Source: Parcubacteria group bacterium GW2011_GWA2_42_14 (lineage in GTDB: Bacteria; Patescibacteriota; Minisyncoccia; Sungbacterales; GWA2-42-14). Taken from it: a stretch of DNA of 64,000 nt. Under the pieces are notes generated by a model. It ran no database searches. It worked only from the letters and a program-made list of their open reading frames with translations, and was not told the DNA's origin. Each line of letters starts with the position of its first letter. Within the stretch, counting starts at the first letter, position 1. The stretch spans positions 8,958 to 72,957 of the forward strand of contig LCCV01000001.1 in the NCBI GenBank assembly GCA_000998135.1, given 5' to 3'. Below are positions 2,281-58,424 of the stretch, in pieces. The position numbers were made by a program, and so were the translations under genes.

Positions 2281-5217
2281 CTACAAAACAAAATTTATCA
2301 GACGGCCAGGAATATAAATAACTTTTTTAACCGGCTTATTTTCCAAATATTTTTTTACTTTTTCACGGCTTAAAACAATTTCGGCAGCGTCTTTTTCCGA
2401 AATTTCAACCGTAACCTCAATAGAATCGCGTACTTTCCCGTTAATCTGCACCACCAGTTCAAAAATATTTTCTTGAATTAGTTTTTGGTCATATTCCGGC
2501 CATTTCTCAAAATGAATAGAATTTAATTGTTTTATATTTTGAATTTTGGAATTTTGAATTTGTTTGGGATTTGGGATTTGGGATTCGGGACTTCCAAAGA
2601 ACTGTTGATATAACTCTTCGGATAGGTGCGGCGCAAACGGCGCTAAAAGTTTTAAAAATATTTTAAGGTACTCAATGGAAACTTTTTCGGAATTTTTCTC
2701 AAACTCATTCAGCAAAATCATCAGCGAAGATATCGCCGTATTATACCGCAAACTTTCAATATCTTCTCCTACTTTTTTTATGGTTTTGTGCAACAGTCGT
2801 TCCAAATCATTTCTAATTTTGGGTTTGGGATTTGGAATTTGTTTGTAATTTGTGATTTGTGATTTATAATTTACAAAACTATATACTCTATTCAAAAACC
2901 TGTATATCCCATTTATCCCTCCGGAATTCCACGGCCCCCCTTGGTCATACGGCCCCATAAACGCCAAATACATTCTTACTGTGTCAGCGCCGTATTTTAC
3001 CACCTCCTTATCCGGGTCAATGACATTGCCGCGCGATTTAGACATTTTCTGAAAATCAGGACCCAGAATTATGCCATGATTCTTTCTGCCGGTAAATGGT
3101 TCCGAAAAATCAACAAAATTCAAATCATATAAAACCTTGATGAAAAAACGGGAATAAAGAAGGTGCATAGTATTATGTTCGGCTCCTCCTATATAAAGAG
3201 GTACGGGCAGCCATAATTTCATTTTTTCTTCGGATGCGAATTTTTGAAAATTTTTCGGATCAACATAACGGATAAAATACCAGGAAGAATCAACAAAAGT
3301 ATCCATAGTATCGGTTTCCCGTTCTGCCGGCCCATTACATTTAGGACACTTCGCACCTGCCCATTTTTCTGCCCTGGCTAAAGGAGAACGCCCGTCGTCA
3401 GTTGGCATAAAATTTTTAAGCAGGGGAAGTTTTACCGGCAAATTTTCTTCGCTGACCGGCTGCCAGCCGCACTTTCTGCAATTAACCATTGGTATGGGAG
3501 TGCCCCAATAACGTTGGCGGGAAATTACCCAATCATGAAGCCGATAATTTACTTTTCTCTCTCCCCTAACAAATTTCGCAATCTCCCACTTCGCATTCTC
3601 TGAATCCATGCCGCTAAATTCTCCGGATTCAATAAGAATTCCGCCATCAATATACGCCCGCTCTTTTCCTTCTAAGCGCACAAGCAATTCGGGAATCTCC
3701 GCGCCTCTTACAAAATCTTTTACTTTTTCTCTCTCTATCCAAACGGCATCGTGTGTTTCTGTTTCCTTTGTAGAAACCGGGAGTTTCTTATCACTCTTCA
3801 GCTCAAAACAGAGTCCGTATACCTCGGATAACCTGTTCTCGCTTTTATGCGCTGCAAAATACTTTGCATAAACGGGCGGACCCAGTTGTTTTACAAAACG
3901 AATATCCATATAGCCGGTTTCTTCTCGTATTTCCCGCATGCCTGCCCCAGCCATATCTTCCCCTTCTTCAACTCCACCAATAATAAAGGTTTGCCAATCA
4001 TATTTTTTCCACTTAAGACATAAATATTTATTTTCGTTCCAGTGTTTTACGATACACTGTACCGTTTTTCTTTTTATCGTAGACGCGCCATCGCGCGGAG
4101 GATTAGTATAATCAACAAATATAGGCGCTACAACATGACAAATAGGAAGATTATATTTCTTCGCAAATTCAAAATCCCGTGAGTCATGGGCCGGAACGGC
4201 CATAATCGCGCCGGTTCCGACATGACCCAGCACGTAATCGGCGACCCAAACCGAAATTTCTTCTTTATTGGCCGGATTTATCGCCTTTACACCTTTTAAT
4301 TCCACGCCGGTTTTTTCTTTCCCTTCGGCTATACGCTCTTCATAATTTTTAACTTTCGCTTTTTTGATATATTCAACAACTTTTCCATAATTCATAATTC
4401 CTAATTCATTATTCTTAAGGAGTGGGTGTTCCGGACCCAAAACCATGTAAGTCGCGCCGAAAAGAGTATCCGAGCGAGTCGTGAATACTTGTATCTTGTA
4501 TCCTGTATCTTGTATCTTAAAATCTATTAATACTCCTTCCGACCTGCCGATCCAGTTTTTTTGTGCAAGTTTTGTGGTTTCCGGCCAATTCAACCCTTGC
4601 ATATCGTTAATTAACCGCTCCGCGTAATCGGTTATCCGAAACATCCATTGTTCAAGTTCTTTTTTAATAACAGAGCTGTCGCACCGCTCGCAACAACCAT
4701 CAACTACCTGTTCATTGGCAAGCACGGTTTTATCCTTAGGGCACCAATTCACCATGGTTTTGGCGCGATACGCCAATCCTTTTTCGAACATCTTCAAAAA
4801 CATCCATTGCGTCCATTTATAATATTCGGGCTCAATGGTTGATACGGTTCTAGACCAATCAAAACTCGCCCCCATGCTTTTTAACTGCTTGGTCATATAC
4901 ATTATATTCTTCTTTGTCCAATCACGGGGATTAATTTTATTTTTAATAGCGGCATTTTCCGCGGGCAGGCCAAAAGCGTCAAAACCAATGGGGTATAAAA
5001 CATTGCGCCCGTTCATTCTTAAAAAACGAACGGAAATATCCGGTACGGCAAACGCGTACCAGTGGCCTATATGCAAATTGCCGGATGGATAAGGAAATTC
5101 CACCAATACCATGTAATTATTTTTCCCGGCAATCTTATCTTTCGTTTCATAAAGCTTCTGTCCCTGCCAGATTTTCTGCCACTTCTTCTCAATTTTTGAA
5201 GAATTATACTTCACCAT
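2281..5217 (-). CDS. leuS: Leucyl-tRNA synthetase carrying an internal Nudix-hydrolase domain.
   Basis: Class I HIGH motif (PSGNLHIGH), KMSKS, the editing-domain TTRSDTLFGATY box and the RQRYWG motif are all present. The start is placed at the ATG giving MVKYNSSKIEKKWQKIW. Residues ~411-560 hold a perfect Nudix box, GGVEEGEDMAGAGMREIREETGY. Confidence 0.95.
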   Translation of the reverse strand: MVKYNSSKIEKKWQKIWQGQKLYETKDKIAGKNNYMVLVEFPYPSGNLHIGHWYAFAVPDISVRFLRMNGRNVLYPIGFDAFGLPAENAAIKNKINPRDWTKKNIMYMTKQLKSMGASFDWSRTVSTIEPEYYKWTQWMFLKMFEKGLAYRAKTMVNWCPKDKTVLANEQVVDGCCERCDSSVIKKELEQWMFRITDYAERLINDMQGLNWPETTKLAQKNWIGRSEGVLIDFKIQDTGYKIQVFTTRSDTLFGATYMVLGPEHPLLKNNELGIMNYGKVVEYIKKAKVKNYEERIAEGKEKTGVELKGVKAINPANKEEISVWVADYVLGHVGTGAIMAVPAHDSRDFEFAKKYNLPICHVVAPIFVDYTNPPRDGASTIKRKTVQCIVKHWNENKYLCLKWKKYDWQTFIIGGVEEGEDMAGAGMREIREETGYMDIRFVKQLGPPVYAKYFAAHKSENRLSEVYGLCFELKSDKKLPVSTKETETHDAVWIEREKVKDFVRGAEIPELLVRLEGKERAYIDGGILIESGEFSGMDSENAKWEIAKFVRGERKVNYRLHDWVISRQRYWGTPIPMVNCRKCGWQPVSEENLPVKLPLLKNFMPTDDGRSPLARAEKWAGAKCPKCNGPAERETDTMDTFVDSSWYFIRYVDPKNFQKFASEEKMKLWLPVPLYIGGAEHNTMHLLYSRFFIKVLYDLNFVDFSEPFTGRKNHGIILGPDFQKMSKSRGNVIDPDKEVVKYGADTVRMYLAFMGPYDQGGPWNSGGINGIYRFLNRVYSFVNYKSQITNYKQIPNPKPKIRNDLERLLHKTIKKVGEDIESLRYNTAISSLMILLNEFEKNSEKVSIEYLKIFLKLLAPFAPHLSEELYQQFFGSPESQIPNPKQIQNSKIQNIKQLNSIHFEKWPEYDQKLIQENIFELVVQINGKVRDSIEVTVEISEKDAAEIVLSREKVKKYLENKPVKKVIYIPGRLINFVL
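2534..2597 (-). repeat. Repeat family A, (GGGATTT)n / caaattcaaaattc, inserted in-frame in leuS.
   Basis: The DNA gaattttggaattttgaatttgtttgggatttgggatttgggatt encodes SPESQIPNPKQIQNSKIQNIKQ. Other copies occur at 2815-2875, 19921-19982, 27031-27146, 51183-51230 and 58164-58232. Confidence 0.8.
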
Positions 5218-5312
5218 ACTATTTACCATAATCAATAAATCGGACATTGACAAGATACAGCTTTTGTGGAACATATCTATCAGGACTTTAAAAAAATGGG
5301 GGCCGTGATTTC

Positions 5313-8456: not shown

Positions 8457-8478
8457 AATAATAGCCCTATGATACATA
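8450..8478 (+). promoter_or_regulatory. Putative sigma70 promoter of secreted-protein paralogue A.
   Basis: TTGACA, a 17-nt spacer, then TACATA(TAA). A block of the same architecture, TTGCAA-17-TACATATAAT, sits upstream of paralogue B at ~9720-9752. Confidence 0.4.
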
Positions 8479-12197: not shown

Positions 12198-12290
12198 GCG
12201 CCATTCGCCAATCAGTCGCGAATTATTTCGCAAATGGTTTGATAAACTCACCATAAATATTCGCGAATAAAATTAGAGATTGATTAGAGA

Positions 12291-14981: not shown

Positions 14982-15080
14982 TAAATTCTTTGAACCTGCT
15001 TCCTTATTCATGTTCTTGACAAATAATTTATATAATATATAATTAGAATTGCAAAAGTCCTTTTAAAAACGGGTCTGATA

Positions 15081-15389
15081 ATGCGCAAAATGCTCTACCA
15101 ACTCGCCTCCTTTGCTGTTTTATACTATATCATTGCCCTTGCCGTCGGTACTACCCTATTCTTTGTGCTGGGATGGAAGAGCCTTCTATTCTTATGGCTT
15201 GGTTCGGCATCAGTAAACATCTTCATTATGTGGCTTGTCGACAAAAAAAGACAACGCAATAACCTTCCTCCCCAATGGTTTCTTGATGACCCAAGCGGCG
15301 CCACAATATCTTCTTGTTTAGCAGGACTGTTAGTGCTCCCTTTTACTATTGCCGCCCTATTTGAACGAACTGGACAAATCAATAAATAA
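15081..15389 (+). CDS. Small membrane protein, hypothetical.
   Basis: A 102-aa ORF with three TM segments, followed by a strong terminator. Confidence 0.4.
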   Translation: MRKMLYQLASFAVLYYIIALAVGTTLFFVLGWKSLLFLWLGSASVNIFIMWLVDKKRQRNNLPPQWFLDDPSGATISSCLAGLLVLPFTIAALFERTGQINK

Positions 15390-15427
15390 AAGTATAAAAA
15401 ATAAATTTGCCAAAATATTTTTCAGCG

Positions 15428-15462
15428 GCCGTGCGCCGCTTTTTTCTTTTTAACAAAACTTA
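15428..15462 (+). terminator. Rho-independent terminator.
   Basis: Stem gcggc-cgtgc-gccgc followed by ttttttcttttt. Confidence 0.65.
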
Positions 15463-15859
15463 CCTCAAGCAAATAATGCCACAAAATTTTTCATTGTGGT
15501 ATTTCAAAATAAGATAAACCCGTCATCACGTCCCACCCCCCTCTCTTTTATATTCAAGCGGCCCTGATTTTATTAAGAAAACCATCTCGCAGGCCGAGCG
15601 GGGTCGTGAAGCGACGGGTTGTTCGGAGGACAACCCCGGGCTTTTGCGAGAAGCAAAAGTGGTTCCCGCTATTCAATTAAAATAAATAAAGAGCGGGAGA
15701 GCGAGGGCGAAAAAGTAATGTTATTACTTTTTCGCGGGCATTGCGAGCAGTCAGACCGCAGTCGGACAGCACAGCAGGATGCCCGGGAACGAGAGTGAGC
15801 GCAATTTCCACGCTGGGGAAATTGATAGCGTGTTTTCGTATAAAATCAGGACCACTTCA

Positions 15860-17872
15860 TCACTCCACCACGCTCCAATCCTTGTTCACCGTCTGCAAAT
15901 CTTCTTTCAATTCAGTGGTTACATCATCGGCGATACTTTCAAGGGCGGTTTTAGTAAAAGAATCCACGCCGGCAATTCTTATATTCTTAACCAACAGGGC
16001 GCGGTTGTTCACCGCGTTTTCACCCGGAGTAATGGCGACATTGAAAGCCAAAAACATTCTGGGCCTGACAACGCCGGTTCCGGCAAAAACATCTCCCGCA
16101 TCCCAAATAAGTTCTCCCGAAGACGGATTAAAACTTAATTTTTCTTTTTTATCGCCCGTTATCTGGTCCAGCCACCTTACGTTCCCCGGCAAAGAAGCGT
16201 ATAATTTTACGCCCTTGGCATCACTAGACAGATTGGAAATTTGAAAAACAACAGTATAGCCGGTTTCTCTGCCGACGGCAGGAGGTAGCGTTCCGATATT
16301 TGGACCCAGAGGAGAATTATAAAATACGGCCTTGGACAAAACAGACAATTGCGTTTTTAATTTAATCTCCAGTAAATTTTCGTATTCAAGCTTAATCCCT
16401 TCAAATCCTTCAGGCGCGGTTTTAGTGATGATTTTTGCCAAAGACGATATGACAAAATCTTTATCAAAAAAACTTGTTATTGACGGTTGTTTCTTAACAA
16501 CTGCGGAAAACGTCACATAACCGTTTTCACCAGGATCCAATTCTTTTAATTCCGGAAAAGAGGATGCGTTCCAAACAAGCTCGCGCGATGCCCCGTCAAA
16601 AAAACCTTTTTCAATTTTCAAATCCCTTAAGTCCATGAGCCCCTCGGAAAGGCGCACTCTTATAAAAACGTCTCTCACCGCCACAGGAAGATTGTTTTTG
16701 TAATAAACAGAAAAGTTTAAGGGCTCCCCAAACCTGGCGGCATAATTTTCGGCCCTGTTTACGTCCTGCCTGACAAAAAGAGGAGGAGATGCTAGATGAA
16801 TTTCTCCCACCTTATCAACAAATGTTTTGAATTGCCTTGTCTGGGGATTATATTCTCCGATGCTGGTAATGAATAATTTGACTTCTTCAGGAAAACCGAT
16901 AATTCTGGAGTTAATCGTAATGCGGCGGCTTTCACCCCGGAGCAAATCGCCCAATTTCCAAATACTATTTTCATAATCAGGTTTCTTATTAGAAGATAAA
17001 AATTCCAAACCGGTAGGCCAGTCCACCCTCATATACAAATTATTAAAGTCCACCTTGGAACTTGATGTAACCTCAACCACTATTTTTATGTCTTGTCCGC
17101 TGATAACTTTTTCAGGAATATCATAAAACACCGCAATCGGCACCAAAGAAATCACCATGGAAAAACTTGCCTGTTTTTGAAAACGCGAGGAAATATTTTC
17201 CGGCTGATACAAAAACAGGACCTCCGCTGTTTTTTCTTCGCCTGTATTTCCGAAAATCCGCGCCGTAAAATCAAACTCCCTTTCTTCACCGGGTTTCATT
17301 TCTTCAACCCTTATTTTGCTTCTTAAATTTTTTGAAACGTTTTCGCCGTCAACGGGTACTGCTCCCTTGGGATAGATAAAATTAAGTTCGGAGTTTTTAA
17401 CAGCTACACCAAGATTATTGCGTATAGTTACCGTCCATGTTTGGGTATCACCGGCTTCAACCGCGGCCTCACCCGATATTTCAAGCGTTACCGCGCCTCC
17501 TTTTTGAAAAACTCCGTAATAGACAAAACCCGCCGCGGCAACCACGGACACAAAAAAAACAATTGACGTAAAAATAAAAATTTTTGATTTATAAAAAGAT
17601 TTTTTGGTTTTTGGCATATTGGTAGTTGTTAAAACCGGCTCTTCTCCACCACCCGCTATCCTACGCATTTCTTCGGGTGAAGAAGGCCTAAAAGATCCAA
17701 TTTCATGACGCCCGGCCCCGTCCTCCGCCGAATCAACCACCCTATCTTCCCCATACGTTCTATCGCTATCCGTTTTTTTTCTCTGTACCTCATAGAGTTC
17801 TTTCTGTTTTCGTTCTTTGGGCCCTTTTCTGGAATAAATTTTTTCCTTTAGTTCTTCGAGTTTATCAGACAT
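15860..17872 (-). CDS. Large membrane-anchored, probably extracellular, protein of unknown function.
   Basis: A 670-aa ORF with a charged N-terminus, a single TM (IFIFTSIVFFVSVVAAAGFVYYGVF) and a long beta-rich ectodomain. Confidence 0.5.
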   Translation of the reverse strand: MSDKLEELKEKIYSRKGPKERKQKELYEVQRKKTDSDRTYGEDRVVDSAEDGAGRHEIGSFRPSSPEEMRRIAGGGEEPVLTTTNMPKTKKSFYKSKIFIFTSIVFFVSVVAAAGFVYYGVFQKGGAVTLEISGEAAVEAGDTQTWTVTIRNNLGVAVKNSELNFIYPKGAVPVDGENVSKNLRSKIRVEEMKPGEEREFDFTARIFGNTGEEKTAEVLFLYQPENISSRFQKQASFSMVISLVPIAVFYDIPEKVISGQDIKIVVEVTSSSKVDFNNLYMRVDWPTGLEFLSSNKKPDYENSIWKLGDLLRGESRRITINSRIIGFPEEVKLFITSIGEYNPQTRQFKTFVDKVGEIHLASPPLFVRQDVNRAENYAARFGEPLNFSVYYKNNLPVAVRDVFIRVRLSEGLMDLRDLKIEKGFFDGASRELVWNASSFPELKELDPGENGYVTFSAVVKKQPSITSFFDKDFVISSLAKIITKTAPEGFEGIKLEYENLLEIKLKTQLSVLSKAVFYNSPLGPNIGTLPPAVGRETGYTVVFQISNLSSDAKGVKLYASLPGNVRWLDQITGDKKEKLSFNPSSGELIWDAGDVFAGTGVVRPRMFLAFNVAITPGENAVNNRALLVKNIRIAGVDSFTKTALESIADDVTTELKEDLQTVNKDWSVVE

Positions 17873-17874
17873 AA

Positions 17875-17950
17875 ATCGCTAATCAATCTCTAATTTTATT
17901 CGCGAATGGTTCGACAAGCTCACCATAAATATTCGCGAATGAATTCGTGT
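17875..17950. repeat. Element of about 80 bp with terminal inverted repeats, one of three copies, sitting immediately upstream of minus-strand gene starts.
   Basis: Sequence cgctaatcaatctctaattttattcgcgaatggttcgacaagctcaccataaatattcgcgaat. Near-identical copies occur at 18497-18570 and 12215-12290. The terminal IR is ctaatcaatctctaattttattcgcgaa / ttcgcgaataaaattagagattgattag. Confidence 0.7.
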
Positions 17951-17961
17951 TTGATTCGTGA

Positions 17962-18495
17962 TTATATACCCATTATATCATACTTTGCCCCAAAATGACT
18001 CGCCACCGCCATTTTAATTGATTCTGGCGTAATGCCCGGAGAAGGAAGAAGGCCAAAAATATGAAGAAATCCCGCGTTAAACTCAAACAATATTTTTTCT
18101 AATCCCGGCCCATTTTGAACATCAACCGTATCTAATCTTTCCAACGTTAAATGCATCAAATCAAAAAGGCGCCCATCGCCCCTTTCTTCAAAAACATTGG
18201 AGTCAGTAAGATTAACAATATAAAAAGCGCATCTCAATTTATTCAAATTGCCTCTTAGGTCAATAAAAAAATCCTTGACTTCGGCTGAAGTAATACGGTA
18301 AAAATTTTTTCCAATGACAAAACTTATGGCCGAGTGAGTCAACGGCTCCAAATGCCCCTTAAGCTTGGCCGCTTCTTTTCTCACTCCCTGCGCCATTACT
18401 TTTATTTTCCCGAAATCCTTGGTCAAAATCGTAATCAACAAATCCGCCTCGCCATAAGGTTCTTTTTTTAAGATGATGCCCTCTGTACTATGCAT
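17962..18495 (-). CDS. recO: DNA repair protein RecO, short form.
   Basis: N-terminal OB-fold signature EGIILKKEPYGEADLLITILTKDFGKIKVMAQGVRK. Confidence 0.6.
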   Translation of the reverse strand: MHSTEGIILKKEPYGEADLLITILTKDFGKIKVMAQGVRKEAAKLKGHLEPLTHSAISFVIGKNFYRITSAEVKDFFIDLRGNLNKLRCAFYIVNLTDSNVFEERGDGRLFDLMHLTLERLDTVDVQNGPGLEKILFEFNAGFLHIFGLLPSPGITPESIKMAVASHFGAKYDIMGI

Positions 18496-18595
18496 ACTCG
18501 CTAATCAATCTCTAATTTTGTTCGCGAATGGTTCGACAAGCTCACCATAAATATTCGCGAAATAATTCGCGATTGATTAGTGATTTTATTATCGC

Positions 18596-18894: not shown

Positions 18895-21800
18895 TTACCA
18901 TCCGTTTTCTACTTTTGTTTTGTTGTTTTGATACTCCCTGAATGATAATTTGTCAATCCCCGCCCAAACTTGCTTGCCTTCAATCTCCAGATCGCACTCG
19001 GCTTTAAAAATCTTTTTTCCGCCGATGTAAAATTCTTTAGCGCCCGCTTCAGCCATAATAAATTTTTTCCATTTTTCCAAAACAATATCTAAATCCGGAG
19101 CGACTTTGAGATTCCTCGCTTCGCTCGGAATGACGCCGAAGGGGTTCGAAATGATACCGGAAGAAAATTGTACCCGGATTTTATCTCTGGGATGAAGTCC
19201 TAAATCTTTACGCATTTCCTGAATGTTTCTGACAATTTCACGCATCATTCCTTCTTCTTTTAATTCCGGCGTAATCACCGTATCAAGTTTCAATTCTTTC
19301 CCAAAGGTGATTTCTTTCACATTCACTTCTTCTTTAATCAATTCTAATAAATCCTTGCGGAGTTGTCGGTTGTTGGTTGTAAGTTGTAAGTTGGCAAGCG
19401 GCTGTCTTACTTTAATCCCCACCTCGGCTCTTAACTTCAGCGCCTCGGCAACAACCTTTCGTACTGTTTCCATGTCTTTGAAAAGTTTCTTATCGCCCTC
19501 AGTCATCCTGAGCCGCAGCGAAAGATCTTTTGAGATTCTTCGCCCCGCTGCGGCTCCGCTCAGAATGACACCCGAAGAGGGCCACTCCGCTAAATGTACG
19601 CTCTCCTCCTCGAGTCGTATTTTTTTTCTCAATTCCCGCCATATCGCATCGGAAAGAAAGGGAATAAACGGCGCTGTTAATTTTGAAAGCTGTACTAATA
19701 TATATGCTGTTGTTAGAGCCGCCTCATTTTTTTCAACAATTGTTTTTGGTTTCTGAAATCTTCGCCTAGAACGTCTCAAATACCAATTGGAAAAATCATT
19801 AAGAGTAAATTCTTCAATTGCCCGCGCCGCCCCGGTAATATCATATTTATCAAGTTTTTTTGTGACTTCAACAGCCAAATTTTCCAATTTTAAAATAATC
19901 CATTGATCAAGGAAGTTTCTTTTTTTTGAATTTTGAATTTTGAATTTGTTTGGGATTTGGGATTTGGGATTTGGGATTTTATCTATGTATGTATCAAAAA
20001 ACACAAAACTGTTCCAAAGCGTTCCTAAAAATCCCCGAAGTTTTACCTGCAAATCTTTCTCATCAAATTTTTTTGGCTCACCCGGGGAATTAATCGTATA
20101 AAAATACCAACGTATGGTATCCGCCCCGTATTTATTAATCATATCCTTGGGGTTAATCACATTGCCCTTGGACTTAGACATTTTCTGTCCGTTCTTATCA
20201 AGCACGTGCCCAAGCGATATAACATTTTTATAAGGCGCGCCCTTTCCAAGAAGCGTTGCTACGGCAAGCAAAGTATAAAACCACCCTCGCGTCTGGTCCA
20301 CCGCCTCTGATATGTAGTCGGCCGGATACAATAATGTTGTTGGTTGTTGGTTGTTGGTTGTTGGTTGTTTTGCGAAAGGCCAATGACCTTGAGCAAATGG
20401 CATAGCGCCCGAATCAAACCATACATCAATTATCTCCGGAACTCTCTTCATTTCTCCCCCGCATTTTTTACAAGAAAAAACAACGGCATCAATATAGGGC
20501 CGGTGGAGATTCACAGCGCCGGTAAAATCCCGCGGCAAATTTTTTAACGGCAAATCAAGCGTTTCGGCAAAAAAAATAAAATCATCTTCACGCTTCCCCA
20601 TATGCTCACGAATCGTTTCTTCATTAGACCAGCCCAAGGCCCCGCTAAACATCATCCAAATCGGATATTCATGGCTTACAATAAGAATAGTTTTTCCGGA
20701 GTGTTTTTGTTCCATATCCGCCATAAAATCCATAATCCTCGCCCTAAGCTCCGAAAGAGTTTCACCGTTAGGGGGGCGTTTCGTAAATTTTTCCAGATGC
20801 GATGAAAAATAACTATGATACATATGGTCAGGCCTTTCGTGAAAATCACCGACATTCACTTCCTGAATCCTTTTGTCAAAATGAACCGGAAGTTCAATAA
20901 TTTTTCCGACAATTTCCGCGGTTTCCCTTGTTCGCAAAACCGGCGAAGAAATAATCAAATCAATACCCCTTTTTTTCAAAAGACCGGCTCTTTTTTCAGC
21001 TTGGACTCTGCCTTTCAGCGTCAAAGGATGTCCGTCAATAGAACCGCAGAGATTTTTAATATTGGAAAGCGACTCGCCGTGACGCATAACCATATATTTA
21101 TTTCTGGCGACACCGCTCCTTTCATGAAGTTCTTCAAGAGAACCGACGGCCTCAATATTTTCACATTTCCCGCACCTCCATACCGGCAAGGGCGTTCCCC
21201 AAAATCTCTCACGAGAAAAAGCCCAATCGCGGACTTCCCGCAAAAATTCACCGAAACGGCCGTCCTTGATATGCTCCGGCATCCAATTTATTTTAAAATT
21301 GCCTGACAATAATTTTTCTTTCAGCACTGTCATTTTTATCCACCAGGCATTTTTTGCAAAATACAAAAGCGGCGTATCGCACCGCCAGCAATGCGGGTAA
21401 TCATGCTCATGCGGTTTTACAAAAAATAGCAGATTCCGCTTCTTCAAATATTCAATAATGTCGCGGTCCGCGGTTTTTACAAACTTTCCTTCGCCGACAA
21501 TTCCTTTTTTAACCGTGCCGTCAACATTTACCGTGTGCAGTATCGGATAATTTAGCTGAACGTCATTCTGAGCCACAGGCGAAGAATCCCCTCCTTGAGA
21601 TCCTTCGCTTCGCTCAGGATGACGATAATACGACTTTACCGCCCGCATATCATCATCGCCAAACGCCGGCGCTATATGCACCATGCCCGTTCCTTCCTCC
21701 GTAGAAACAAAATCTCCTGGTATAACGCTAAACCCCGGAGGACTGCCCAAAAAATATTCTTGAGGAACGCTGAATAACGGTTCATATTCCGTCCCCAGCA

Positions 21801-22659
21801 GAGATTTTCCCGAAACTTTTTCAACCACCTCAATTTTTTCCTCGGGGCTGTGAGGCGGTATAGTCGCCGACCACACACAATATCTTCCGCCGCCCGCGGC
21901 CCCGTCACCCACTTCCCATTTAGTGTATTCAATCTTCGGATTAACCGCCACCGCCACATTTGCGGGCAGGGTCCATGGCGTAGTTGTCCAAATAAGCAGG
22001 TATTCATTTCTTTCTCCTTTGATTTTTAATTTAACAAAAACAGAATTTTCTTTTACCGTCCTATATGCTCCCGGCTGGCCCAATTCATGCGTGGAAAGGC
22101 CGGTTTCACACCGCGGGCACCACGGCACCACTTTAAAATCCTGATACAAAAGTTTTTTCTTCCAAATTTCTTTGATAATCCACCATAAACTTTCTATATA
22201 CTTGGTTTCATACGTAATGTAAGGGTTTTCAAGGTCAAGCCAAAAACCGATACGCTTGGTTGATTTTTCCCACTCTTCCTTGAACTGCCACACGGACTGG
22301 CGACATTTTTCGTTGAACGCCGCAATGCCATATTTCTCAATATCCTTTTTGGTTTTAATTCCCAACATCTTTTCCACCTGAATTTCAACCGGCAAACCGT
22401 GCGTATCCCACCCGGCTTTTCTCGGCACAAAAAACCCGCGCATAGTTTTATAACGCGGAATAATATCTTTGAACGAGCGCGACTCCAAATGATGAATTCC
22501 GGGAGCAGCATTGGCAGTAGGCGGACCTTCGTAAAATATAAATGTTTTACCCCGTTTATTTTTGGCAAGCGACTTCTCAAAAATCTTGTTTTTCTCCCAA
22601 AATTCCAAAATTTTTTCTTCCCGTTCGGGCAAACTAAGTTGTTTATTATCATCAGACAT
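18895..22659 (-). CDS. ileS: Isoleucyl-tRNA synthetase with an inserted histidine-phosphatase domain and several in-frame repeat insertions.
   Basis: HIGH-region (PPTANAAPGIHH), WCPRCET zinc motif, KMSKS, and a C-terminal zinc-binding region. Residues ~525-715 carry the RHGESLSN, SSPVLRTRETAEIV and ILIVSHEYP motifs of the PGAM/histidine-phosphatase superfamily. Confidence 0.95.
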   Translation of the reverse strand: MSDDNKQLSLPEREEKILEFWEKNKIFEKSLAKNKRGKTFIFYEGPPTANAAPGIHHLESRSFKDIIPRYKTMRGFFVPRKAGWDTHGLPVEIQVEKMLGIKTKKDIEKYGIAAFNEKCRQSVWQFKEEWEKSTKRIGFWLDLENPYITYETKYIESLWWIIKEIWKKKLLYQDFKVVPWCPRCETGLSTHELGQPGAYRTVKENSVFVKLKIKGERNEYLLIWTTTPWTLPANVAVAVNPKIEYTKWEVGDGAAGGGRYCVWSATIPPHSPEEKIEVVEKVSGKSLLGTEYEPLFSVPQEYFLGSPPGFSVIPGDFVSTEEGTGMVHIAPAFGDDDMRAVKSYYRHPERSEGSQGGDSSPVAQNDVQLNYPILHTVNVDGTVKKGIVGEGKFVKTADRDIIEYLKKRNLLFFVKPHEHDYPHCWRCDTPLLYFAKNAWWIKMTVLKEKLLSGNFKINWMPEHIKDGRFGEFLREVRDWAFSRERFWGTPLPVWRCGKCENIEAVGSLEELHERSGVARNKYMVMRHGESLSNIKNLCGSIDGHPLTLKGRVQAEKRAGLLKKRGIDLIISSPVLRTRETAEIVGKIIELPVHFDKRIQEVNVGDFHERPDHMYHSYFSSHLEKFTKRPPNGETLSELRARIMDFMADMEQKHSGKTILIVSHEYPIWMMFSGALGWSNEETIREHMGKREDDFIFFAETLDLPLKNLPRDFTGAVNLHRPYIDAVVFSCKKCGGEMKRVPEIIDVWFDSGAMPFAQGHWPFAKQPTTNNQQPTTLLYPADYISEAVDQTRGWFYTLLAVATLLGKGAPYKNVISLGHVLDKNGQKMSKSKGNVINPKDMINKYGADTIRWYFYTINSPGEPKKFDEKDLQVKLRGFLGTLWNSFVFFDTYIDKIPNPKSQIPNKFKIQNSKKRNFLDQWIILKLENLAVEVTKKLDKYDITGAARAIEEFTLNDFSNWYLRRSRRRFQKPKTIVEKNEAALTTAYILVQLSKLTAPFIPFLSDAIWRELRKKIRLEEESVHLAEWPSSGVILSGAAAGRRISKDLSLRLRMTEGDKKLFKDMETVRKVVAEALKLRAEVGIKVRQPLANLQLTTNNRQLRKDLLELIKEEVNVKEITFGKELKLDTVITPELKEEGMMREIVRNIQEMRKDLGLHPRDKIRVQFSSGIISNPFGVIPSEARNLKVAPDLDIVLEKWKKFIMAEAGAKEFYIGGKKIFKAECDLEIEGKQVWAGIDKLSFREYQNNKTKVENGW
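19921..19982 (-). repeat. Repeat family A copy inserted in-frame in ileS.
   Basis: The DNA ttgaattttgaattttgaatttgtttgggatttgggatttgggatttgggatt encodes IDKIPNPKSQIPNKFKIQNSKK. Confidence 0.8.
20335..20372 (-). repeat. Repeat family C, (GTTGTTGG)n / (TTGTAAG)n, in-frame in ileS.
   Basis: Encodes KQPTTNNQQPTT. Other copies occur at 19368-19396 (LANLQLTTNNRQL), 44716-44786 (intergenic, rpmI-rplT) and 63838-63940. Confidence 0.75.
21562..21624 (-). repeat. Repeat family D, the palindromic unit gtcattctgagc...gctcagaatgac, in-frame in ileS.
   Basis: The DNA gtcattctgagccacaggcgaagaatcccctccttgagatccttcgcttcgctcaggatgacg encodes HPERSEGSQGGDSSPVAQNDV. Other copies occur at 19502-19571 (SLRLRMTEGDKK), 19108-19135 (VIPSEARNL), 55075-55135, 56900-57045 and 59255-59365. 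Confidence 0.8.
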
Positions 22660-22722
22660 ATTACCAATCATATATAAATTCGGCATAAATGCAAAATAAA
22701 AACGGCTTTTGGGGCCGCATAT

Positions 22723-23111: not shown

Positions 23112-24740
23112 TTACATCTTCTCCGGCTTAGAAATTCCTAAAAGACCTAATATATTATGTAACACAATTTGAGTTGAGCTGACAAGAACAAGGCGCGCGT
23201 TTTGCAATTCTAAATTTTCAGACAAAACATGCTGCTTTTCGTAAAAATTATGAAAAATTTTGGATAGCTCAAGAGCGTATCGCGTAAGGCGTATAACCTG
23301 AAAATCGCCCGCTGTATCTTCAACAACTTCCGGAAACTGCATCAGTTTTTTAATCAGCATCCGTTCCTCGTCCGTATTTAATAATTTAATAATTTGAATT
23401 TTGCTTGCCCGCCATAGCTTTAGCGAAGGCGGGGATTTTCCCAATATACTACTACATCTTACATACGCATACTGGACATAATACACCGGATTCTTCATTG
23501 ACCTTTCTTTGGCCAATTTCATGTCAAAGTCCATGTGGGTATCGGGCGAATGCATCAAAAAGAAAAAACGCGCCGCGTCCGGCCCCACTTCTTTTATCAA
23601 TTCCTCAAGCGTGATAAACTCTCCCCGGCGCTTGGACATTTTCACTTCTTTGCCGTCTTCAATCAGCCGCACCAGCTGGGTAATTATTATTTTTATTTTA
23701 TCTTGGCCGATGCCAAGCGCCTTCAACGCCGCGACCAAGCGGGGGGCGTAGCCATGATGGTCGGCCCCCCAAATATCAATTACTTTATCAAACTTGCGGA
23801 CCTTAAATTTATTCCAATGGTAAGACAGGTCGGGAAGGGCATATGTCGGCTCCCCTGTTTGCCTGACCAAAACACGGTCTTCAGTATCCCCGTATTCTTT
23901 TGCTTTAAGCCAAAGCGCTCCGTCTTTTTCGTAAACCAGGTTTTTTTTCTTAAGTTCTGCTTGTATTTTTTTTACAAGCCCGCTTTTATAAAGAGATTCT
24001 TCCGAAAAAAACTTATTAAATTTAATTTTAAAAATGTTTTCAATATTCACTTGGTTTTCTTTCTGAATTTTTTGCGTTAAAGCAAAACCGACTTCCCCCT
24101 CCATATTTCTCGGATTTTTTGACTTAATTTCTGAAATAATTTTTCTGAATTCCGGGCTTTGAAACTTTTCTTTTACGTATGGCGAAAGATAGCTCATTCC
24201 CCTGCCCAAAGCCGTTTTCCCCAATTCTTTAATTTGCGTGCTGGATTTGGCGTCGTTAATATAATATTCACGGCAAACCTTGGCGCCGAAAAATTCAAGA
24301 ACATTCGCAAGAACATCCCCCAAAAAAGCGCCTCTAGCATTTCCCATGGTAATAGGGCCTGTCGGATTGGCGGAAATGAATTCTATATTTATTGATTGTA
24401 GTTTGTGGATTGTGGTTTGTGGTTTACCATAAATGTTTTTCTTCTTTAAAATCTCTTGAAACTCGCTCTCAAGCGTCTCTTCTGATAATCGGAAATTAAT
24501 AAAACCGGGCGGAGCTGTTTCCGCCTCCCACATTCCACCCCCCACATTCTCTTTAAGAATACCCGCGATTTCCAACGGATTTTTATTCAAAATTTTAGAC
24601 AAAAGCAGGGCGATATTAGCGGAATAATCGCCGTGCGCCGGATTTTCCGGCGCCTCAACCAAAAATTCCGGCATTAAAATATTGCCGAATTTTTCAACAA
24701 CGGCTTTAAGAACGGCTTTTTTGATTTCTGTTCTAATCAT
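23112..24740 (-). CDS. argS: Arginyl-tRNA synthetase.
   Basis: EFISANPTGPITMGNARGA and a C-terminal NPVYYVQYAYVRC segment are standard ArgRS signatures. Confidence 0.9.
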   Translation of the reverse strand: MIRTEIKKAVLKAVVEKFGNILMPEFLVEAPENPAHGDYSANIALLLSKILNKNPLEIAGILKENVGGGMWEAETAPPGFINFRLSEETLESEFQEILKKKNIYGKPQTTIHKLQSINIEFISANPTGPITMGNARGAFLGDVLANVLEFFGAKVCREYYINDAKSSTQIKELGKTALGRGMSYLSPYVKEKFQSPEFRKIISEIKSKNPRNMEGEVGFALTQKIQKENQVNIENIFKIKFNKFFSEESLYKSGLVKKIQAELKKKNLVYEKDGALWLKAKEYGDTEDRVLVRQTGEPTYALPDLSYHWNKFKVRKFDKVIDIWGADHHGYAPRLVAALKALGIGQDKIKIIITQLVRLIEDGKEVKMSKRRGEFITLEELIKEVGPDAARFFFLMHSPDTHMDFDMKLAKERSMKNPVYYVQYAYVRCSSILGKSPPSLKLWRASKIQIIKLLNTDEERMLIKKLMQFPEVVEDTAGDFQVIRLTRYALELSKIFHNFYEKQHVLSENLELQNARLVLVSSTQIVLHNILGLLGISKPEKM

Positions 24741-26579: not shown

Positions 26580-27032
26580 GTGAAAGTTATTGCCACAAAT
26601 AAACGCGCTTATTTTGACTACGAAATCCTGGAAACATACGAAGCGGGATTAGAATTATTCGGCTTTGAGGTAAAATCAATCAAAACCGGGCACGCAAATC
26701 TCGGCGGGTCTTTTATAGTGATTCAAGCTAAAACCGCCGGCTCGCCCGAGGCATGGCTTTTGAACGCCCACATTCCTCCATATCAGCCGAAAAACACTCC
26801 GGCAAGTTTTGACCCCTACCGAACCCGCCGACTGCTTTTACACAAATCAGAAATCCGGGAACTAATTGGCAAATCGGCCCAAAAGGGCTTGACTTTAGTG
26901 CCTCTTCGGGTATATAATAAAGGCGCACGGATAAAAATTGAATTCGGCTTGTCAAGACACAAGAAAAAGGAAGATAAGAGAGAAACGATTAAAGAAAGGG
27001 AAACCAAAAGAGAGATTGATCGATATAAATAA
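26580..27032 (+). CDS. smpB: SsrA-binding protein SmpB.
   Basis: IATNKRAYFDYEILETYEAGLELFGFEVKS...DPYRTRRLLLHKSEI is the SmpB signature. The probable start is a GTG at 26580, 7 nt downstream of a TATAAT at 26567-26572, so the mRNA may be leaderless. Confidence 0.85.
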   Translation: MKVIATNKRAYFDYEILETYEAGLELFGFEVKSIKTGHANLGGSFIVIQAKTAGSPEAWLLNAHIPPYQPKNTPASFDPYRTRRLLLHKSEIRELIGKSAQKGLTLVPLRVYNKGARIKIEFGLSRHKKKEDKRETIKERETKREIDRYK

Positions 27033-27159
27033 AATCCCAAATTCCAATTTCCAAATCTCAAATAAATTCTAAAATCAAATGTTCAAAATTTTTTTTGAAT
27101 TTTGGATTTCGGTAATTCGATATTATTTAGGATTTGATGCTTAGAATTTGGGATTTCAC

Positions 27160-27205
27160 CCCCCGAAATTATTTAATCGCGATTAAATAATTTCGGGGGG
27201 TGACA
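27160..27205. repeat. Perfect 21-bp-arm palindrome whose right arm is the 5' acceptor strand of the tmRNA.
   Basis: Sequence caccccccgaaattatttaatcgc|gattaaataatttcggggggtg. Confidence 0.7.
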
Positions 27206-27653: not shown

Positions 27654-27667
27654 TCGAATAAAAATAA

Positions 27668-44715: not shown

Positions 44716-44785
44716 CCGACAACCAACAGCCAACAACCAACAACACAAAAAGTTGTAAGTTGTAAGTTGTAAGTTGTAAGTTGTT

Positions 44786-50695: not shown

Positions 50696-52534
50696 TTATT
50701 TCAAAAACTTCAGCATTTTTTCAAGAGACCATCCGTTGATAATATCCTTACGTTCCGCCCATCCTCTTCTGGCTTGCGCAATTCCAAACTCCAACATTTT
50801 AAAATGCTGAATTGAATGCGCATCAGAATCAATTGACATTTTTACTCCTGCCCTAACGCATTTTCTAATATATTCATCTTTTATATCGGCGCGATTAGGA
50901 TACGCGTTGACTTCCAAAATGGTTCCGGTACGTTTCGCGGCCGCGATAATTTCATCAATATCCAACTCAATCGGCTCGCGTTTATTGATAAGACGACCGG
51001 TAAGATGAAAAATAATATCAACATTCGTATTTTCCATGGCGCGGATAATGCGTTTGGTTTGTTCTTGGCGCGAAAGGTTAAAATGACTATGAACGGCCGC
51101 GCCAACAACATCCAATTTTGCCAAAACCTCGTCTTTGATGTCCAGCTCACCGTTTTTCCCAATATTTACTTCCGCTCCCTTTAATATTTTGAATTTGGAA
51201 TTTGGAATTTGTTTGGAATTTAGCTTGTCTATATATGCCATTTGTTTCAAAAGTTTCTTCTCGTCCGAACCGCCGGTCATGGCAAGGGAACGGGTATGGT
51301 CCGTAATCACAATATATTGAAGTCCGGCTTCCATAGCCGCTTTGGCCATTTCTTCAATAGAATTTTCTCCGTCGGTCCAATCGGTTTGAACTTGCATATC
51401 GCCTTTTAAATCGCCATATTTGATTAAATCCGGTAGCAAGGGCCCGACCCGTGCGCGACCAAGGTCGGACCTTGCATGTATAACGAGTTTACCCTGAGCA
51501 TGTCGAAGGGCCGCTTCAATTTCTCCTGTATTTTCACGCATTTCCGGCTCGATATAACTAAGTCCAAGGGCCTTATATAATTCTTCCTCGGTTTTTCCGG
51601 CAACCAATATCTCCGCTGAACCACGCAGACCGTTTCCGCGACTGTCTGCGTCCTGTCCGCGTGAGTCCGCGCTTCGAAAGAGACCATATTCATTAAGCTT
51701 CCACCCTTTCTTAATCGCAATTTGCCGCAAAGCGACATTATGGTCTTTTGAGCCGGTAAAATAATTAAGGGCCGCGCCGAATGATTCCTTTGGCACGACG
51801 CGCAAATCCGCATCAAGACCATTTTTTAATTTCACGGCTGTTTTGGTTTTGCCGTGCGCGTAAACATGGGCAATAAAAAGCAAACCCAGAAATCTCTCCA
51901 TTACTATTTCCGGCTTTGATGACGTAACCAAAATATCAATATCACCAATGGTTTCTTTGCTCCTCCTAACTGAACCGGCCACAACCGCCTTTTCAACTTC
52001 GGGAAACGACTGAATCATTTTTTCAAGCGTACGAATTTCCGGCAAAATAAATCCCAAAACAGCTCTTCCGCCGGATTTTTTCAAAAATTCAATTCCTTTT
52101 AAAATTTTTTGCTCTGATTTATCTCCAAAGTGTTCAAGTTTCCGGATTTTCCCGGCTTTAGCCGCTTTTTCCAAATCCGCCAAGTTGCGAATTCTTAATT
52201 TCTGCCATAGTGTTTTTACCATTCTGGGCCCAACGCCTTCCACCGCAGTCAATTCAGAAATATTCACCGGAATTTTTTTCTTCAATTTTTCATATTCGTC
52301 AAAATTTCCTTTTTCCAAAAGCTGTTTGATATGAAAAGCAATTCCTTTTCCCACGCCGGGAATTTCCAAAAGAGCTTTTTCTCCTCCTTCTTTATAAATT
52401 TCTTTTACTTCTTGAGCAAGCGATTCAACACCCAATGCCGCCTTCTCATAAGCGCGCGGTTTAAATAAAACTCCTTCCATTTCGTACAATACAGCCATCT
52501 CATTTAATATTTTAGCAATCTCACTATTGGTCAT
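50696..52534 (-). CDS. Family X DNA polymerase with a C-terminal PHP domain (PolX).
   Basis: N-terminal HhH motifs (LLEIPGVGKGIA, LTAVEGVGPRMVKTLW), the palm motif GSVRRSKETIGDIDILV, and a C-terminal PHP region (HARSDLGRA, ITDHTRS, HSHFNLS...DSDAHS). Confidence 0.85.
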   Translation of the reverse strand: MTNSEIAKILNEMAVLYEMEGVLFKPRAYEKAALGVESLAQEVKEIYKEGGEKALLEIPGVGKGIAFHIKQLLEKGNFDEYEKLKKKIPVNISELTAVEGVGPRMVKTLWQKLRIRNLADLEKAAKAGKIRKLEHFGDKSEQKILKGIEFLKKSGGRAVLGFILPEIRTLEKMIQSFPEVEKAVVAGSVRRSKETIGDIDILVTSSKPEIVMERFLGLLFIAHVYAHGKTKTAVKLKNGLDADLRVVPKESFGAALNYFTGSKDHNVALRQIAIKKGWKLNEYGLFRSADSRGQDADSRGNGLRGSAEILVAGKTEEELYKALGLSYIEPEMRENTGEIEAALRHAQGKLVIHARSDLGRARVGPLLPDLIKYGDLKGDMQVQTDWTDGENSIEEMAKAAMEAGLQYIVITDHTRSLAMTGGSDEKKLLKQMAYIDKLNSKQIPNSKFKILKGAEVNIGKNGELDIKDEVLAKLDVVGAAVHSHFNLSRQEQTKRIIRAMENTNVDIIFHLTGRLINKREPIELDIDEIIAAAKRTGTILEVNAYPNRADIKDEYIRKCVRAGVKMSIDSDAHSIQHFKMLEFGIAQARRGWAERKDIINGWSLEKMLKFLK

Positions 52535-57113: not shown

Positions 57114-58424
57114 TCAGAAGAGGCTCGCCTGTTTGGAAATCTCTCTCCTCTCCCCTTCCTCGAAAATTCTCACTTTGCCGTAAAGACCGTCGTAGCCGGG
57201 CTCTATATGAAGCCGCCCCTCGCGAACCCGCATAATACCCTCAACAATTTCCGGCTTAATTTTTCCTTCAAGGTCAGCGCGGGAAACATCAAATAGTACC
57301 GATATCTCGTTTCCGAATTCAGCAACAATATTCTTAAACTCCTCCTGAATTTTTTTTGTCGTAGCCGAAGCAACCCCTAATGACTCGGCAATAATCTCAT
57401 CAAGCGGAACCATATTTTTATACGGAATCGCTTTTTCCGGTTTAAATCCTTCAGATTTAAATCCTTCCGGTCTATCCGCCAATTCTTCCACACGGCTCAT
57501 CACTCCCACGGTAACCTTTTTTCCGCACTTGGGGCAAAGGCCTTTTAATTTTCTGGTTTCTTCGGGAGCAAGCCTGATATTGCAATCCCTATGGCCGTCA
57601 TAGTGATAAATCCCCTCTTCCGGAAAAAATTCTATGGTGGAAAGAAAACGTTTGGGGTCTTTAGATTTTATTGCTTCAATAATCCCGTTATATGAAAGTT
57701 CTGCGTCAAAAATATTCGCTTCTCGCCCAATGCGTCTTAAAGAATGGCTGTCGGAATTGGAAATCAGCGCATATTTATCAAGCGCTGAAACCCGCCAATT
57801 CATGGCCGGGTCACTAGACAAACCCGTTTCCAGAGCAAAAATATGCTTTGAGTACTCATCAAAACATTCTTCAATTGAATCAAAACCGGATTTGGAACCG
57901 AACACGGAAAACCAAGGGGTCCATATATGCGCCGGAACAAAAAAACAATTGGGGTCGGCATTTAAGACAATCTTCAAAAGCTCTTTAGAATCAAGCCCCA
58001 AAATCGGCCGGCCATCGGATTTAATATTTCCGCGGATATTCAACTGCGCGTTTATTTTTTCCGCCGTCTCAACTGACGACGCAAAAATCAGATTGTGAAT
58101 TCTTCTAACCTTCCCGCCTTTGGAATAAATGCTTGAAATTTCCACCGTCAGCATAAAACGCGTTTTGGAATTTGAGTTTTGGTCATTTGAATTTATTAGG
58201 GATTTGGGATTTGGGATTTGGGATTTTAGTTTAAAGATTCCTTGCTCCGCCGGCTCCAGTTTCTCTTTAATTTCTTTTATCCATTTAGGATGCGTAAAAT
58301 CTCCAGTCCCCATAACCGTAATTCCCTTGAGCCCTGCCCAATAATCCAAATTCTCCAAAGTCATTTCTTTGGAAACCGCGCGCGCGTATGGCGAATGAAT
58401 ATGAAAATCAGCAATTATTCTCAT
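57114..58424 (-). CDS. PHP-domain protein with a Zn-ribbon (EndoQ-like / TIGR00375-type).
   Basis: MRIIADFHIHSPYA marks the PHP N-terminus; the HIWTPWFSVFG, DSHSLRRIG and CPKCGKK motifs follow. An in-frame repeat A insertion, KSQIPNPKSLINSNDQNSNSK, is present. Confidence 0.5.
   Translation of the reverse strand: MRIIADFHIHSPYARAVSKEMTLENLDYWAGLKGITVMGTGDFTHPKWIKEIKEKLEPAEQGIFKLKSQIPNPKSLINSNDQNSNSKTRFMLTVEISSIYSKGGKVRRIHNLIFASSVETAEKINAQLNIRGNIKSDGRPILGLDSKELLKIVLNADPNCFFVPAHIWTPWFSVFGSKSGFDSIEECFDEYSKHIFALETGLSSDPAMNWRVSALDKYALISNSDSHSLRRIGREANIFDAELSYNGIIEAIKSKDPKRFLSTIEFFPEEGIYHYDGHRDCNIRLAPEETRKLKGLCPKCGKKVTVGVMSRVEELADRPEGFKSEGFKPEKAIPYKNMVPLDEIIAESLGVASATTKKIQEEFKNIVAEFGNEISVLFDVSRADLEGKIKPEIVEGIMRVREGRLHIEPGYDGLYGKVRIFEEGERREISKQASLF

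Follow-up and report, generated by a model that had tools for sequence, protein, structure and literature searches.

The 64 kb of DNA analysed here (hereafter the window), which cover only part of the source genome, come from the Parcubacteria/Sungbacteria metagenome-assembled genome (MAG) GW2011_GWA2_42_14 and contain seven copies of one repeat of about 60 nucleotides (nt), here called family A. Five copies lie inside protein-coding genes, two of them in leuS (leucyl-tRNA synthetase, LeuRS) and one each in ileS (isoleucyl-tRNA synthetase, IleRS), a PolX-family DNA polymerase gene and the gene for a homologue of endonuclease Q (EndoQ), and the other two form an inverted pair in the interval between smpB and the tmRNA gene. 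It is, by a small measure, probable that they belong to a family of short, non-autonomous interspersed repeats built of heptanucleotides, selfish or neutral in behaviour, which spread by templated patching, change by slippage and are tolerated in surface loops. An earlier note on this DNA, made from the sequence alone, had proposed to confirm that the segments are lineage-specific insertions; the element is not restricted to this lineage and is found in many phyla.

The sequence TTGGGATTTGGGATT, with up to two mismatches allowed, occurs 15 times in the window against an expectation of 0.7, a count reached in none of 100 shuffles. A separate repeat search returned one family (D1) with six 65-nt copies at 2529, 2808, 19915, 27092, 51178 and 58162 and, in addition, inverted matches to 27025-27088. 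An nhmmer profile found exactly seven significant copies, with E-values from 1e-14 to 4e-7 (Table 1), and Tandem Repeats Finder reported a period of 7 at every repeat site (3.4-4.6 copies, 83-100% match). Perfect arrays of at least three units number seven in the window for period 7 and zero for periods 5, 6 and 9 to 15. The coordinates and peptides by which the earlier note had placed the same repeat DNA in leuS (twice), ileS, PolX, the EndoQ-like gene and the intergenic site are thereby confirmed, with some revision of the extents: the intergenic pair is present as claimed and runs to 27157 rather than 27146, and the PolX copy is only about 43 nt long.

When aligned in coding sense, all seven copies consist of a run of AAATCCC-type heptamers, the sequence AAA[C/T]AAATTC (the AAAYAAATTC junction) and a run of AAAATTC-type heptamers, the junction being in effect a shortened unit by which the phase of the heptamers is displaced. 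The ileS and leuS copies have in common an identical block of 37 nt that spans the junction. Because the junction, the order of the arms and identical blocks are shared, the copies are taken to be of common descent and, as far as sequence can tell, derive from one another; convergent evolution of the proteins, which the earlier note had argued against, is rejected since the sharing (the 37-nt block and the common junction) is at the DNA level. Each coding copy is a non-palindromic single arm, 43-63 nt long, within which no inverted repeat is present; in the window only the pair between genes (27032-27157) is palindromic, folding into an imperfect hairpin of some 125 nt that is separated from the tmRNA gene downstream by 39 nt.

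All five coding copies are in sense orientation and are open in the host frame by translation, in agreement with the earlier observation that every one of them keeps the frame. In the pristine ileS copy, none of the three sense frames contains a stop codon, and each of the three antisense frames does. Three heptamers amount to 21 nt and cycle through all the frames, so that the peptide has a period of seven residues and is the same in any frame; it is because of this frame-independent period that unrelated proteins share SQIPNPK and FKIQNSK (KSQIPNP/KFKIQNS). The first leuS copy (leuS-1) and the EndoQ copy both correspond to nine heptamer lengths, or 21 codons.

Table 1. Copies of the family A repeat and their host or neighbouring genes in the 64-kb window
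Feature	Positions	Strand	nhmmer match	Remarks
ileS copy	19924..19979	-	19979-19924	sense strand (AAATCCC)4-AAACAAATTC-(AAAATTC)2-AAAA; encodes KIPNPKSQIPNKFKIQNS
leuS-1 copy	2532..2594	-	2594-2532	63 nt; encodes SPESQIPNPKQIQNSKIQNIK
leuS-2 copy	2811..2872	-	2872-2811	(AAATCAC/AAATTAC)3-AAACAAATTC-CAAATCCCAAACCC; encodes NYKSQITNYKQIPNPKPKIR
PolX patch	51181..51223	-	51223-51181	CTAAATTCCAAACAAATTCCAAATTCCAAATTCAAAATATTAA, encodes LNSKQIPNSKFKIL; about 43 nt
EndoQ-homologue copy	58164..58226	-	58226-58166	63 nt; (AAATCCC)4-TAATAAATTC-AAATGACCAAAACTCAAATTCC; encodes residues 67-87, KSQIPNPKSLINSNDQNSNSK
Intergenic pair, left arm	27032..27090	+	27032-27090	begins at the final base of the smpB stop codon
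Intergenic pair, right arm	27095..27157	-	27157-27095	tails of both arms face each other
ileS, isoleucyl-tRNA synthetase with inserted His_Phos_1 domain	18895..22671	-		repeat host
leuS, leucyl-tRNA synthetase with inserted NUDIX domain	2281..5247	-		repeat host
PolX-family DNA polymerase gene with PHP domain	50696..52534	-		repeat host
EndoQ homologue gene	57114..58424	-		repeat host
smpB (end)	27032
tmRNA gene (ssrA)	27196-27656

The view that the coding copies are insertions is borne out in full at one site. The leuS-1 copy is a true net insertion of 63 nt, or 21 amino acids (aa), between the anticodon-binding and C-terminal domains: the span measures 57 aa in the window versus 35-36 aa in most of 36 aligned orthologues, 28 residues stand opposite 5 in the alignment with the Thermus thermophilus LeuRS 1H3N, and the position is an interdomain gap in solved LeuRS structures. 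The leuS-2 copy, in a variable loop after RFLNRVY that is about 8-10 aa above the usual 50-52 aa, and the ileS copy, in the loop after FFDTYIDK, have each added about 8 aa to a naturally variable loop. The two sites seem to correspond to one another, as the same loop in a pair of paralogous class Ia synthetases, and three LeuRS orthologues (P0133, P0141 and P0177) have heptamer-type peptides at the leuS-2 site. The PolX copy, on the other hand, is by alignment a replacement patch and not an insertion, since 24 nt with the family junction replace 21 native nt for a net gain of one residue and the orthologue L002, at 74% aa identity, has non-repeat DNA there: LNEKFKDLKFKIL and INRTFRSSKFKVL occupy the site in L002 and L003, respectively, neither of them encoded by repeat DNA, and L002 encodes LNEKFKDLKFKILKG from ordinary DNA where the window has the patch, L003 being similar. 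In the EndoQ homologue the span is 57 aa long, only two more than the 55 aa of 27 of the 33 orthologues, and is 13 and 7 aa longer than in the two closest homologues; the AlphaFold model renders the segment as coil between strands with a predicted local distance difference test score (pLDDT) of 59-71, against 94-97 for the neighbouring blocks.

The earlier note further held that the insertion was recent. This fails for the ileS and leuS-1 copies, which are already present at the same sites in relatives; the copies are not recent in general and have persisted long at a site while the array was homogenised. A metagenome contig (L128) whose ileS has about 82% nucleotide identity, the sole diverged relative returned by a metagenome scan for ileS-array alleles that yielded no strain series, has an element of the same length at the ileS site, (AAATCCC)2(AAATTCC)2-AAACAAATTC..., identical to that of the window at 59 of 62 positions (95%) versus 562 of 695 (81%) in the flanks (Fisher p = 0.003). 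Orthologues of ileS at 51-61% protein identity have heptamer arrays in the corresponding loop, and the junction is the same there, but the array unit is AAAATCC, AAATTAC or AAATTCC instead of AAATCCC. The closest leuS orthologue (L129, 60%) has an orthologous copy at leuS-1, AAATCACAAATCACAAACCACAAATCAC-AGACAGATTC-AAAATTC... (nhmmer E = 5e-7), in which almost all units read CAC in place of CCC (AAATCAC), and in L001 the AAAATCC unit is found in four arrays of one gene. At the IleRS and LeuRS hot spots, varied heptamer-type or GC-rich repeat peptides are present in some orthologues and short loops in others. Similar peptides in orthologues are thus encoded by repeat DNA, and the finding stands.

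Among close relatives, a contig from ENA (L005; 99.5% identity over 13.9 kb) has only one indel relative to the window: an AAATCCC unit is missing from ileS, so that three units remain instead of four and the gene is split, being called as 924 + 330 aa; this is a single case, the four-unit allele being present in all other assemblies (at least 12 intact contigs versus one frameshifted). The difference points to slippage or a local error, repeat collapse being unlikely because the 31-nt array is much shorter than the k-mer. A second ENA contig exits leuS inside the leuS-2 copy and runs on into a different copy. Comparison of assemblies, in which one is off by a single heptamer and several independent ones agree, indicates that the feature is not an assembly artefact. 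A length difference between the relatives L003 and L004 was considered as an empty versus a filled site and was rejected, being the template/variable-repeat region of a diversity-generating retroelement. This retroelement (bAvd, reverse transcriptase, template and variable repeats; about 13700-16400) adjoins ileS in the Sungbacteria relative, and the L003 and L004 assemblies join its template and variable repeats differently.

The distribution of the element was explored with the degenerate pattern AAATYMMAAATYMMAAAYAARTTC in 596 Gb of sequence, for which we estimate about one chance match. At least 120 loci match. The figures that follow refer to the matches listed, whose hosts include Patescibacteria, Desulfobacterota/'Deltaproteobacteria', Acidobacteriota, Bacteroidota, Planctomycetota, Verrucomicrobiota, Omnitrophota, Aminicenantes and Nitrospirota; one match lies within a 5.3-Mb chromosome. 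Flanking sequence that the pattern does not select extends the consensus to ...AAATTCCAAATYCC(AAGCACC)AAATTCCAAAYAAATTCCAAATTCCAATGACCAAAAC, and the 49 further copies in the matched loci, also unselected, mostly keep the junction exactly or nearly. In all 31 adjacent inverted pairs the A/C-rich arm is 5' and the tails face each other, forming hairpins of 130-180 nt; single arms are found at about two thirds of the loci, and the outer ends vary in length. The element has a GC content of 30 +/- 6% in hosts that range from 28 to 67%. By a simple and crude open reading frame (ORF) criterion, 72 of 123 copies (about 60%) are intergenic, and clear in-frame cases outside the window are found in Candidate Phyla Radiation (CPR) genes for LeuRS, ArgRS and MnmA. 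Copies are more similar within a genome (64.6%) than between genomes (57.1%), with none of 2000 permutations giving a value as high. Two of the metagenomic loci have arrays of a more extended kind: in a Desulfobacterales MAG (L108, 1138-1569) the composite unit AAATCACAAATTCCAAATAAATTCCAAATTCC occurs in many tandem copies, and a Clostridia MAG (L065, 196-380) has long (AAATCCC)n and (AAATTCC)n arrays.

Searches for a vehicle or a function gave mostly negative results. No terminal signature or linked transposase/RAYT was found near family A copies, although the ORFs of the window were not scanned with PF01797, and no gene family or transposase is recurrent in the neighbourhood (about 4 kb) of the copies: in a search of 117 listed loci, which did not extend to whole genomes, at most 6 loci fell into one cluster. 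The pattern scan of IMG/VR gave one contig only, and the element is therefore not regarded as phage-borne; no match was returned when a full hairpin was compared with plasmids, or the window pair with phages, by BLAST, with the reservation that the low-complexity filter may mask matches. In the window and 16 hairpin-bearing loci, nothing reached the Rfam gathering score apart from tmRNA and one group I intron, and at an E-value threshold the interval 26900-27260 gave no family; otherwise these Rfam searches gave only sub-threshold miRNA-like hairpin matches. Around the intergenic pair, a scan for consensus promoters and terminators yielded no terminator and no convincing promoter. Among the matches listed, intergenic single arms show no orientation bias (24 versus 23), and 76% of the intergenic copies lie between genes of the same direction. 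Mismatches between hairpin arms are symmetric (112 of G.U type versus 110 of A.C type), so the excess of G.U-type mismatches sought as a sign of RNA-level pairing is absent.

The explanation that we favour would take the following form. An element arm comprises about 60-70 nt, with an A/C-rich (AAATYMM)n run, followed out of phase by the fixed junction AAAYAAATTC and then by another run of heptamers, and the palindrome of 130-180 nt would be two such arms tail to tail, as in the smpB-ssrA pair. The element would behave as a selfish or neutral sequence, and new copies would be written by templated patch copying from an existing copy, as the PolX patch and the shared junction suggest. Such copying, whether by gene conversion or by template switching, would start from A-rich microhomology and could either lengthen a site by about 63 nt or replace a comparable stretch. 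The arrays then evolve by slipped-strand mispairing and homogenisation of units, as the comparisons of strains and orthologues show. In a gene-dense genome, copies would survive only where they are harmless, which the observed sites bear out in part: the surviving coding copies would be those in sense orientation, in permissive surface loops or linkers and with a total length that is a multiple of three. The sense orientation of the survivors would follow from the A/C-rich strand being free of stops in three frames and encoding hydrophilic peptides (Lys/Ser/Gln/Ile/Pro/Asn).

Several observations weigh against this explanation. No gain or loss of a copy was caught between close relatives, and the copying mechanism and the ends of the element were not observed; at leuS-1, the only clean insertion, no target-site duplication is visible. 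The stronger conservation of the ileS copy relative to its flanks hints at constraint at the nucleotide level, which a purely neutral element would not experience, and the persistence of an AT-rich consensus across many phyla, where the host GC content can be as high as 67%, is difficult to account for unless the element is often transferred horizontally or has a function. Since a change of a single heptamer in an essential gene should be lethal, the L005 variant may reflect a mistake of sequencing or assembly. Finally, the orientation statistics for the source genome come from 64 kb. A broader reading that joins the findings is possible, if clearly more doubtful than the favoured one: an undescribed, cross-phylum, heptamer-built palindromic family with arms of about 65 nt, a fixed junction and about 30% GC even in 67%-GC hosts would be constrained at the nucleotide level, spread without transposition by patch conversion able to overwrite coding sequence, and remodel the same surface loops of essential CPR enzymes, slippage occasionally splitting genes.

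Among the alternatives, the one that deserves most attention, though we think it rather unlikely, is that the element is a functional cis-element selected at the DNA or RNA level, of which the coding copies are by-products or exaptations. It could be a bidirectional hairpin terminator or transcript stabiliser, a G-free C-rich Rho-loading site, a G-quadruplex on the GGGATTT strand or a protein-binding array. This possibility is kept alive by the conservation of the ileS copy (95% identity against 81% in the flanks) and by the AT-rich consensus in GC-rich hosts, which is conserved over phyla at host GC contents of 28-67%. The position of the window pair directly after the smpB stop codon and the predominance of same-direction neighbours (76% of the intergenic copies) also speak for it. 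The polarity common to the 31 inverted pairs, by which either transcript would begin with the A/C-rich arm and end with the U/G-rich one, would suit a function but is equally expected of any single palindromic element, and single arms are unbiased with respect to the flanking genes (24 versus 23). Hairpin arms are about 75% identical, without a surplus of G.U-compatible mismatches, and the consensus scan and Rfam gave no terminator, convincing promoter or match. The pattern G3N4 of a quadruplex is matched by (GGGATTT)4, and the related GGGAATC heptamers of Xanthomonas have been studied for this property (PMC4692102); many copies, however, are made of GGAATTT, GTGATTT or GTAATTT units, which are incapable of forming G-quadruplexes.

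Independent growth of microsatellites in situ, selection on the peptides and an artefact of assembly each fit the data less well. Arrays grown by slippage at each site, alike through a mutational bias towards A-rich heptamers and with no movement of DNA between sites, are an improbable source of the family. In the window, heptamer repeats of several unrelated units are indeed over-represented, a passage of PMC4692102 cites heptameric simple repeats as over-represented in prokaryotes, one-unit slippage was observed in the L005 ileS, and different units can occupy the same orthologous site, as with (GATACAA)4 versus (GAATTCA)4 in LeuRS. Such growth does not account for an out-of-phase junction and array order common to all seven copies and to unselected copies elsewhere, for the identical 37-nt block across the junction in ileS and leuS, or for a PolX patch that has the junction although the ancestral sequence held no heptamer array of that unit; stepwise growth by 7 nt in essential genes would, moreover, involve frameshifted intermediates. 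That the peptides are what is selected, as flexible hydrophilic linkers or an interaction motif, with the repetitiveness of the DNA secondary, is less probable still: similar peptides do recur at the same IleRS and LeuRS loops in many orthologues and the segments are coil or linker regions, but the peptide varies with the unit (KSQIPNP, KLQITNY, KSKIQNP) while the DNA periodicity persists, many orthologues have short unrelated loops, and about 60% of the listed copies in other genomes are, by the crude ORF criterion, apparently non-coding. An assembly or binning artefact, through repeat collapse or chimeric joins, is hardly credible and was rejected, even though an ENA contig is at variance by a single heptamer and a second one breaks off inside leuS-2 to continue into a different copy. 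Identical IleRS, LeuRS, PolX and EndoQ proteins are encoded in independent NCBI, JGI and ENA assemblies (up to 11 contigs), the arrays, of at most 31 nt, are far below read and k-mer length, reading frames are intact, diverged genomes hold orthologous copies, and the elements of GC-rich hosts are embedded in long contigs, including the 5.3-Mb chromosome.

Compared with known systems, the interspersed heptamer repeat that we favour most readily recalls the Rickettsia palindromic elements (RPEs), to which the earlier note likened it. These elements, said to have been described by Ogata and colleagues in 2000, are reportedly in frame in housekeeping genes, where they add surface peptides while function is kept. 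They are full palindromes of 100-150 bp, not tandem heptamers, and have intergenic copies too. The analogy is fair in that both are short repeats in frame inside housekeeping genes with further copies between genes, and fails in that the coding copies of family A are non-palindromic half elements, single arms of about 60 nt made of heptamers, that the family is spread over many phyla and not one genus, and that the PolX copy replaces native sequence. Homology with the RPE families of Rickettsiales is unlikely given the heptamer make-up of the repeat, whose host here is a Parcubacteria/Sungbacteria MAG. As in the contingency loci of Haemophilus and Neisseria, a change of one unit shifts the frame, and the three-unit allele splits ileS; the hosts, however, are essential housekeeping genes (ileS, leuS, PolX, EndoQ) rather than surface or restriction genes, and an adaptive on/off switch is implausible. 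The small dispersed repeats of Nostoc, attributed to Elhai and colleagues (2008), are said to be mobile sequences of 21-27 nt that are associated with heptameric arrays and replace a similar length; they resemble the PolX patch in that replacement and differ in sequence, in size (21-27 nt) and in their cyanobacterial hosts.

Miniature inverted-repeat transposable elements and REP/REPIN sequences (Correia, ERIC, REPINs; PMC3116915) are likewise non-autonomous, dispersed, mostly intergenic and arranged as paired hairpins with genome-specific flavours, but the outer ends of family A are heptamer arrays of variable length and not fixed terminal repeats. Heptameric simple repeats are represented by the cyanobacterial STRR, GGGAATC in Xanthomonas and GGGGA(T/C)T in Nostoc (Rehm et al. 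2015, PMC4692102). These share with family A tandem heptanucleotides of similar composition (GGGATTT and GGAATTT compared with GGGAATC and GGGGATT), length variation from strain to strain, some inverted pairs and a mostly intergenic location; they are plain intergenic arrays of particular genera (PMC4692102), whereas family A has a fixed junction and arm order, a cross-phylum spread and in-frame copies in essential CPR genes. A full-text search of 8 million papers for the repeat sequence gave an unrelated primer match only, and word searches (heptanucleotide repeats; interspersed repeats in CPR) found no description of the element.

The element illustrates how loops and linkers in the most conserved proteins of very small genomes can arise from repeat DNA and go on being remodelled by it. 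It explains low-complexity strings such as KSQIPNP, KFQIPNS and ITNYKLQ as well as the antisense products GIWDLGF and WNLEFGI, strings that seem frequent in metagenomic protein sets. In practice, heptamer arrays break contigs and give split or frameshifted calls of essential genes, copies of the element generate spurious antisense ORFs, and the arrays could act as strain markers.

As to the host genes, the ileS product is identical (100%) to KKS38949.1 and is also found in Candidatus Sungbacteria RIFCSP MAGs. Internal PF00300 (histidine phosphatase) in IleRS and PF00293 (NUDIX) in LeuRS are common to most of the listed CPR orthologues, and hydrolase domains are additionally present in some LeuRS. 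The EndoQ homologue, of 436 aa, has no Pfam match, and its AlphaFold model (pLDDT 90) matches the fold of Pyrococcus furiosus endonuclease Q with a TM score of 0.83; the protein is named 'DNA helicase UvrD' by NCBI. Its closest homologues, P0252 and P0253, both contain intein-like insertions of about 360-400 aa, and most others (P0254 and others) are about 1100 aa long, the alignment consensus running on into helicase-like motifs (GPGTGKT). Next to the intergenic pair, a perfect 24+24-nt palindrome (TCACCCCCCGAAATTATTTAATCG/CGATTAAATAATTTCGGGGGGTGA) occupies 27156-27203, its 3' arm overlapping the first bases of the tmRNA gene.

The window contains other repeats besides family A. A second heptamer family (AACAACC/ACAACTT) is present at 19360-19392 and 20335-20370, both in ileS, where it encodes QPTTNNQQPTT and LQLTTNNRQL, and at 24396-24425, 63891-63937 and, between genes, 44714-44784, where two of its arrays lie side by side in opposite orientation. 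A third (GAATTAT/GGAATTA) is found at 4384-4416 (leuS), at 7686-7718 and 7907-7939 (gene 6960-8477) and at 27524-27556 in the tmRNA gene, with one array in a helix of the tmRNA pseudoknot region; it encodes NNELGIMNYG, NYELGIRNYG and ELRIRNNELRI, with length unchanged relative to orthologues. At 4488-4518 in leuS, (GATACAA)4 specifies FKIQDTGYKIQ, a beta-hairpin that is conserved in LeuRS, and in the 60%-identical orthologue L129 (about 2955-2990) the hairpin is encoded at identical length by (GAATTCA)4, so that different perfect heptamer arrays make up one structural element.

GC-rich palindromic repeats (GTCATYCTGAGCGAAGCGAAGRATCTC...GCTCAGRATGAC) occur at 21559-21624, 19495-19575 and 19102-19152 in ileS, at 51611-51676 and 51443-51508 in PolX and at 56978-57011. 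They are in frame, giving RHPERSEGSQ...AQNDV and VILSGAAAGRRISKDLSLRLRMT, and orthologues have other repeats at the same sites; being full palindromes, they come nearer than family A to the RPEs. The gene at 17962-18495 is flanked by an intergenic repeat some 92 nt long (TTCGCGAATGGTTCGACAAGCTCACCATAAATATTCGCGAA...; 17876-17967 and 18498-18589), of which inverted partial copies are present near 12259 (12227-12271). Lastly, direct repeats at 8952-9051/10235-10334 (100 nt) and 8450-8497/9719-9766 (48 nt), 83-84% identical and about 1.28 kb apart, suggest a local duplication of a gene end with a terminator-like hairpin.

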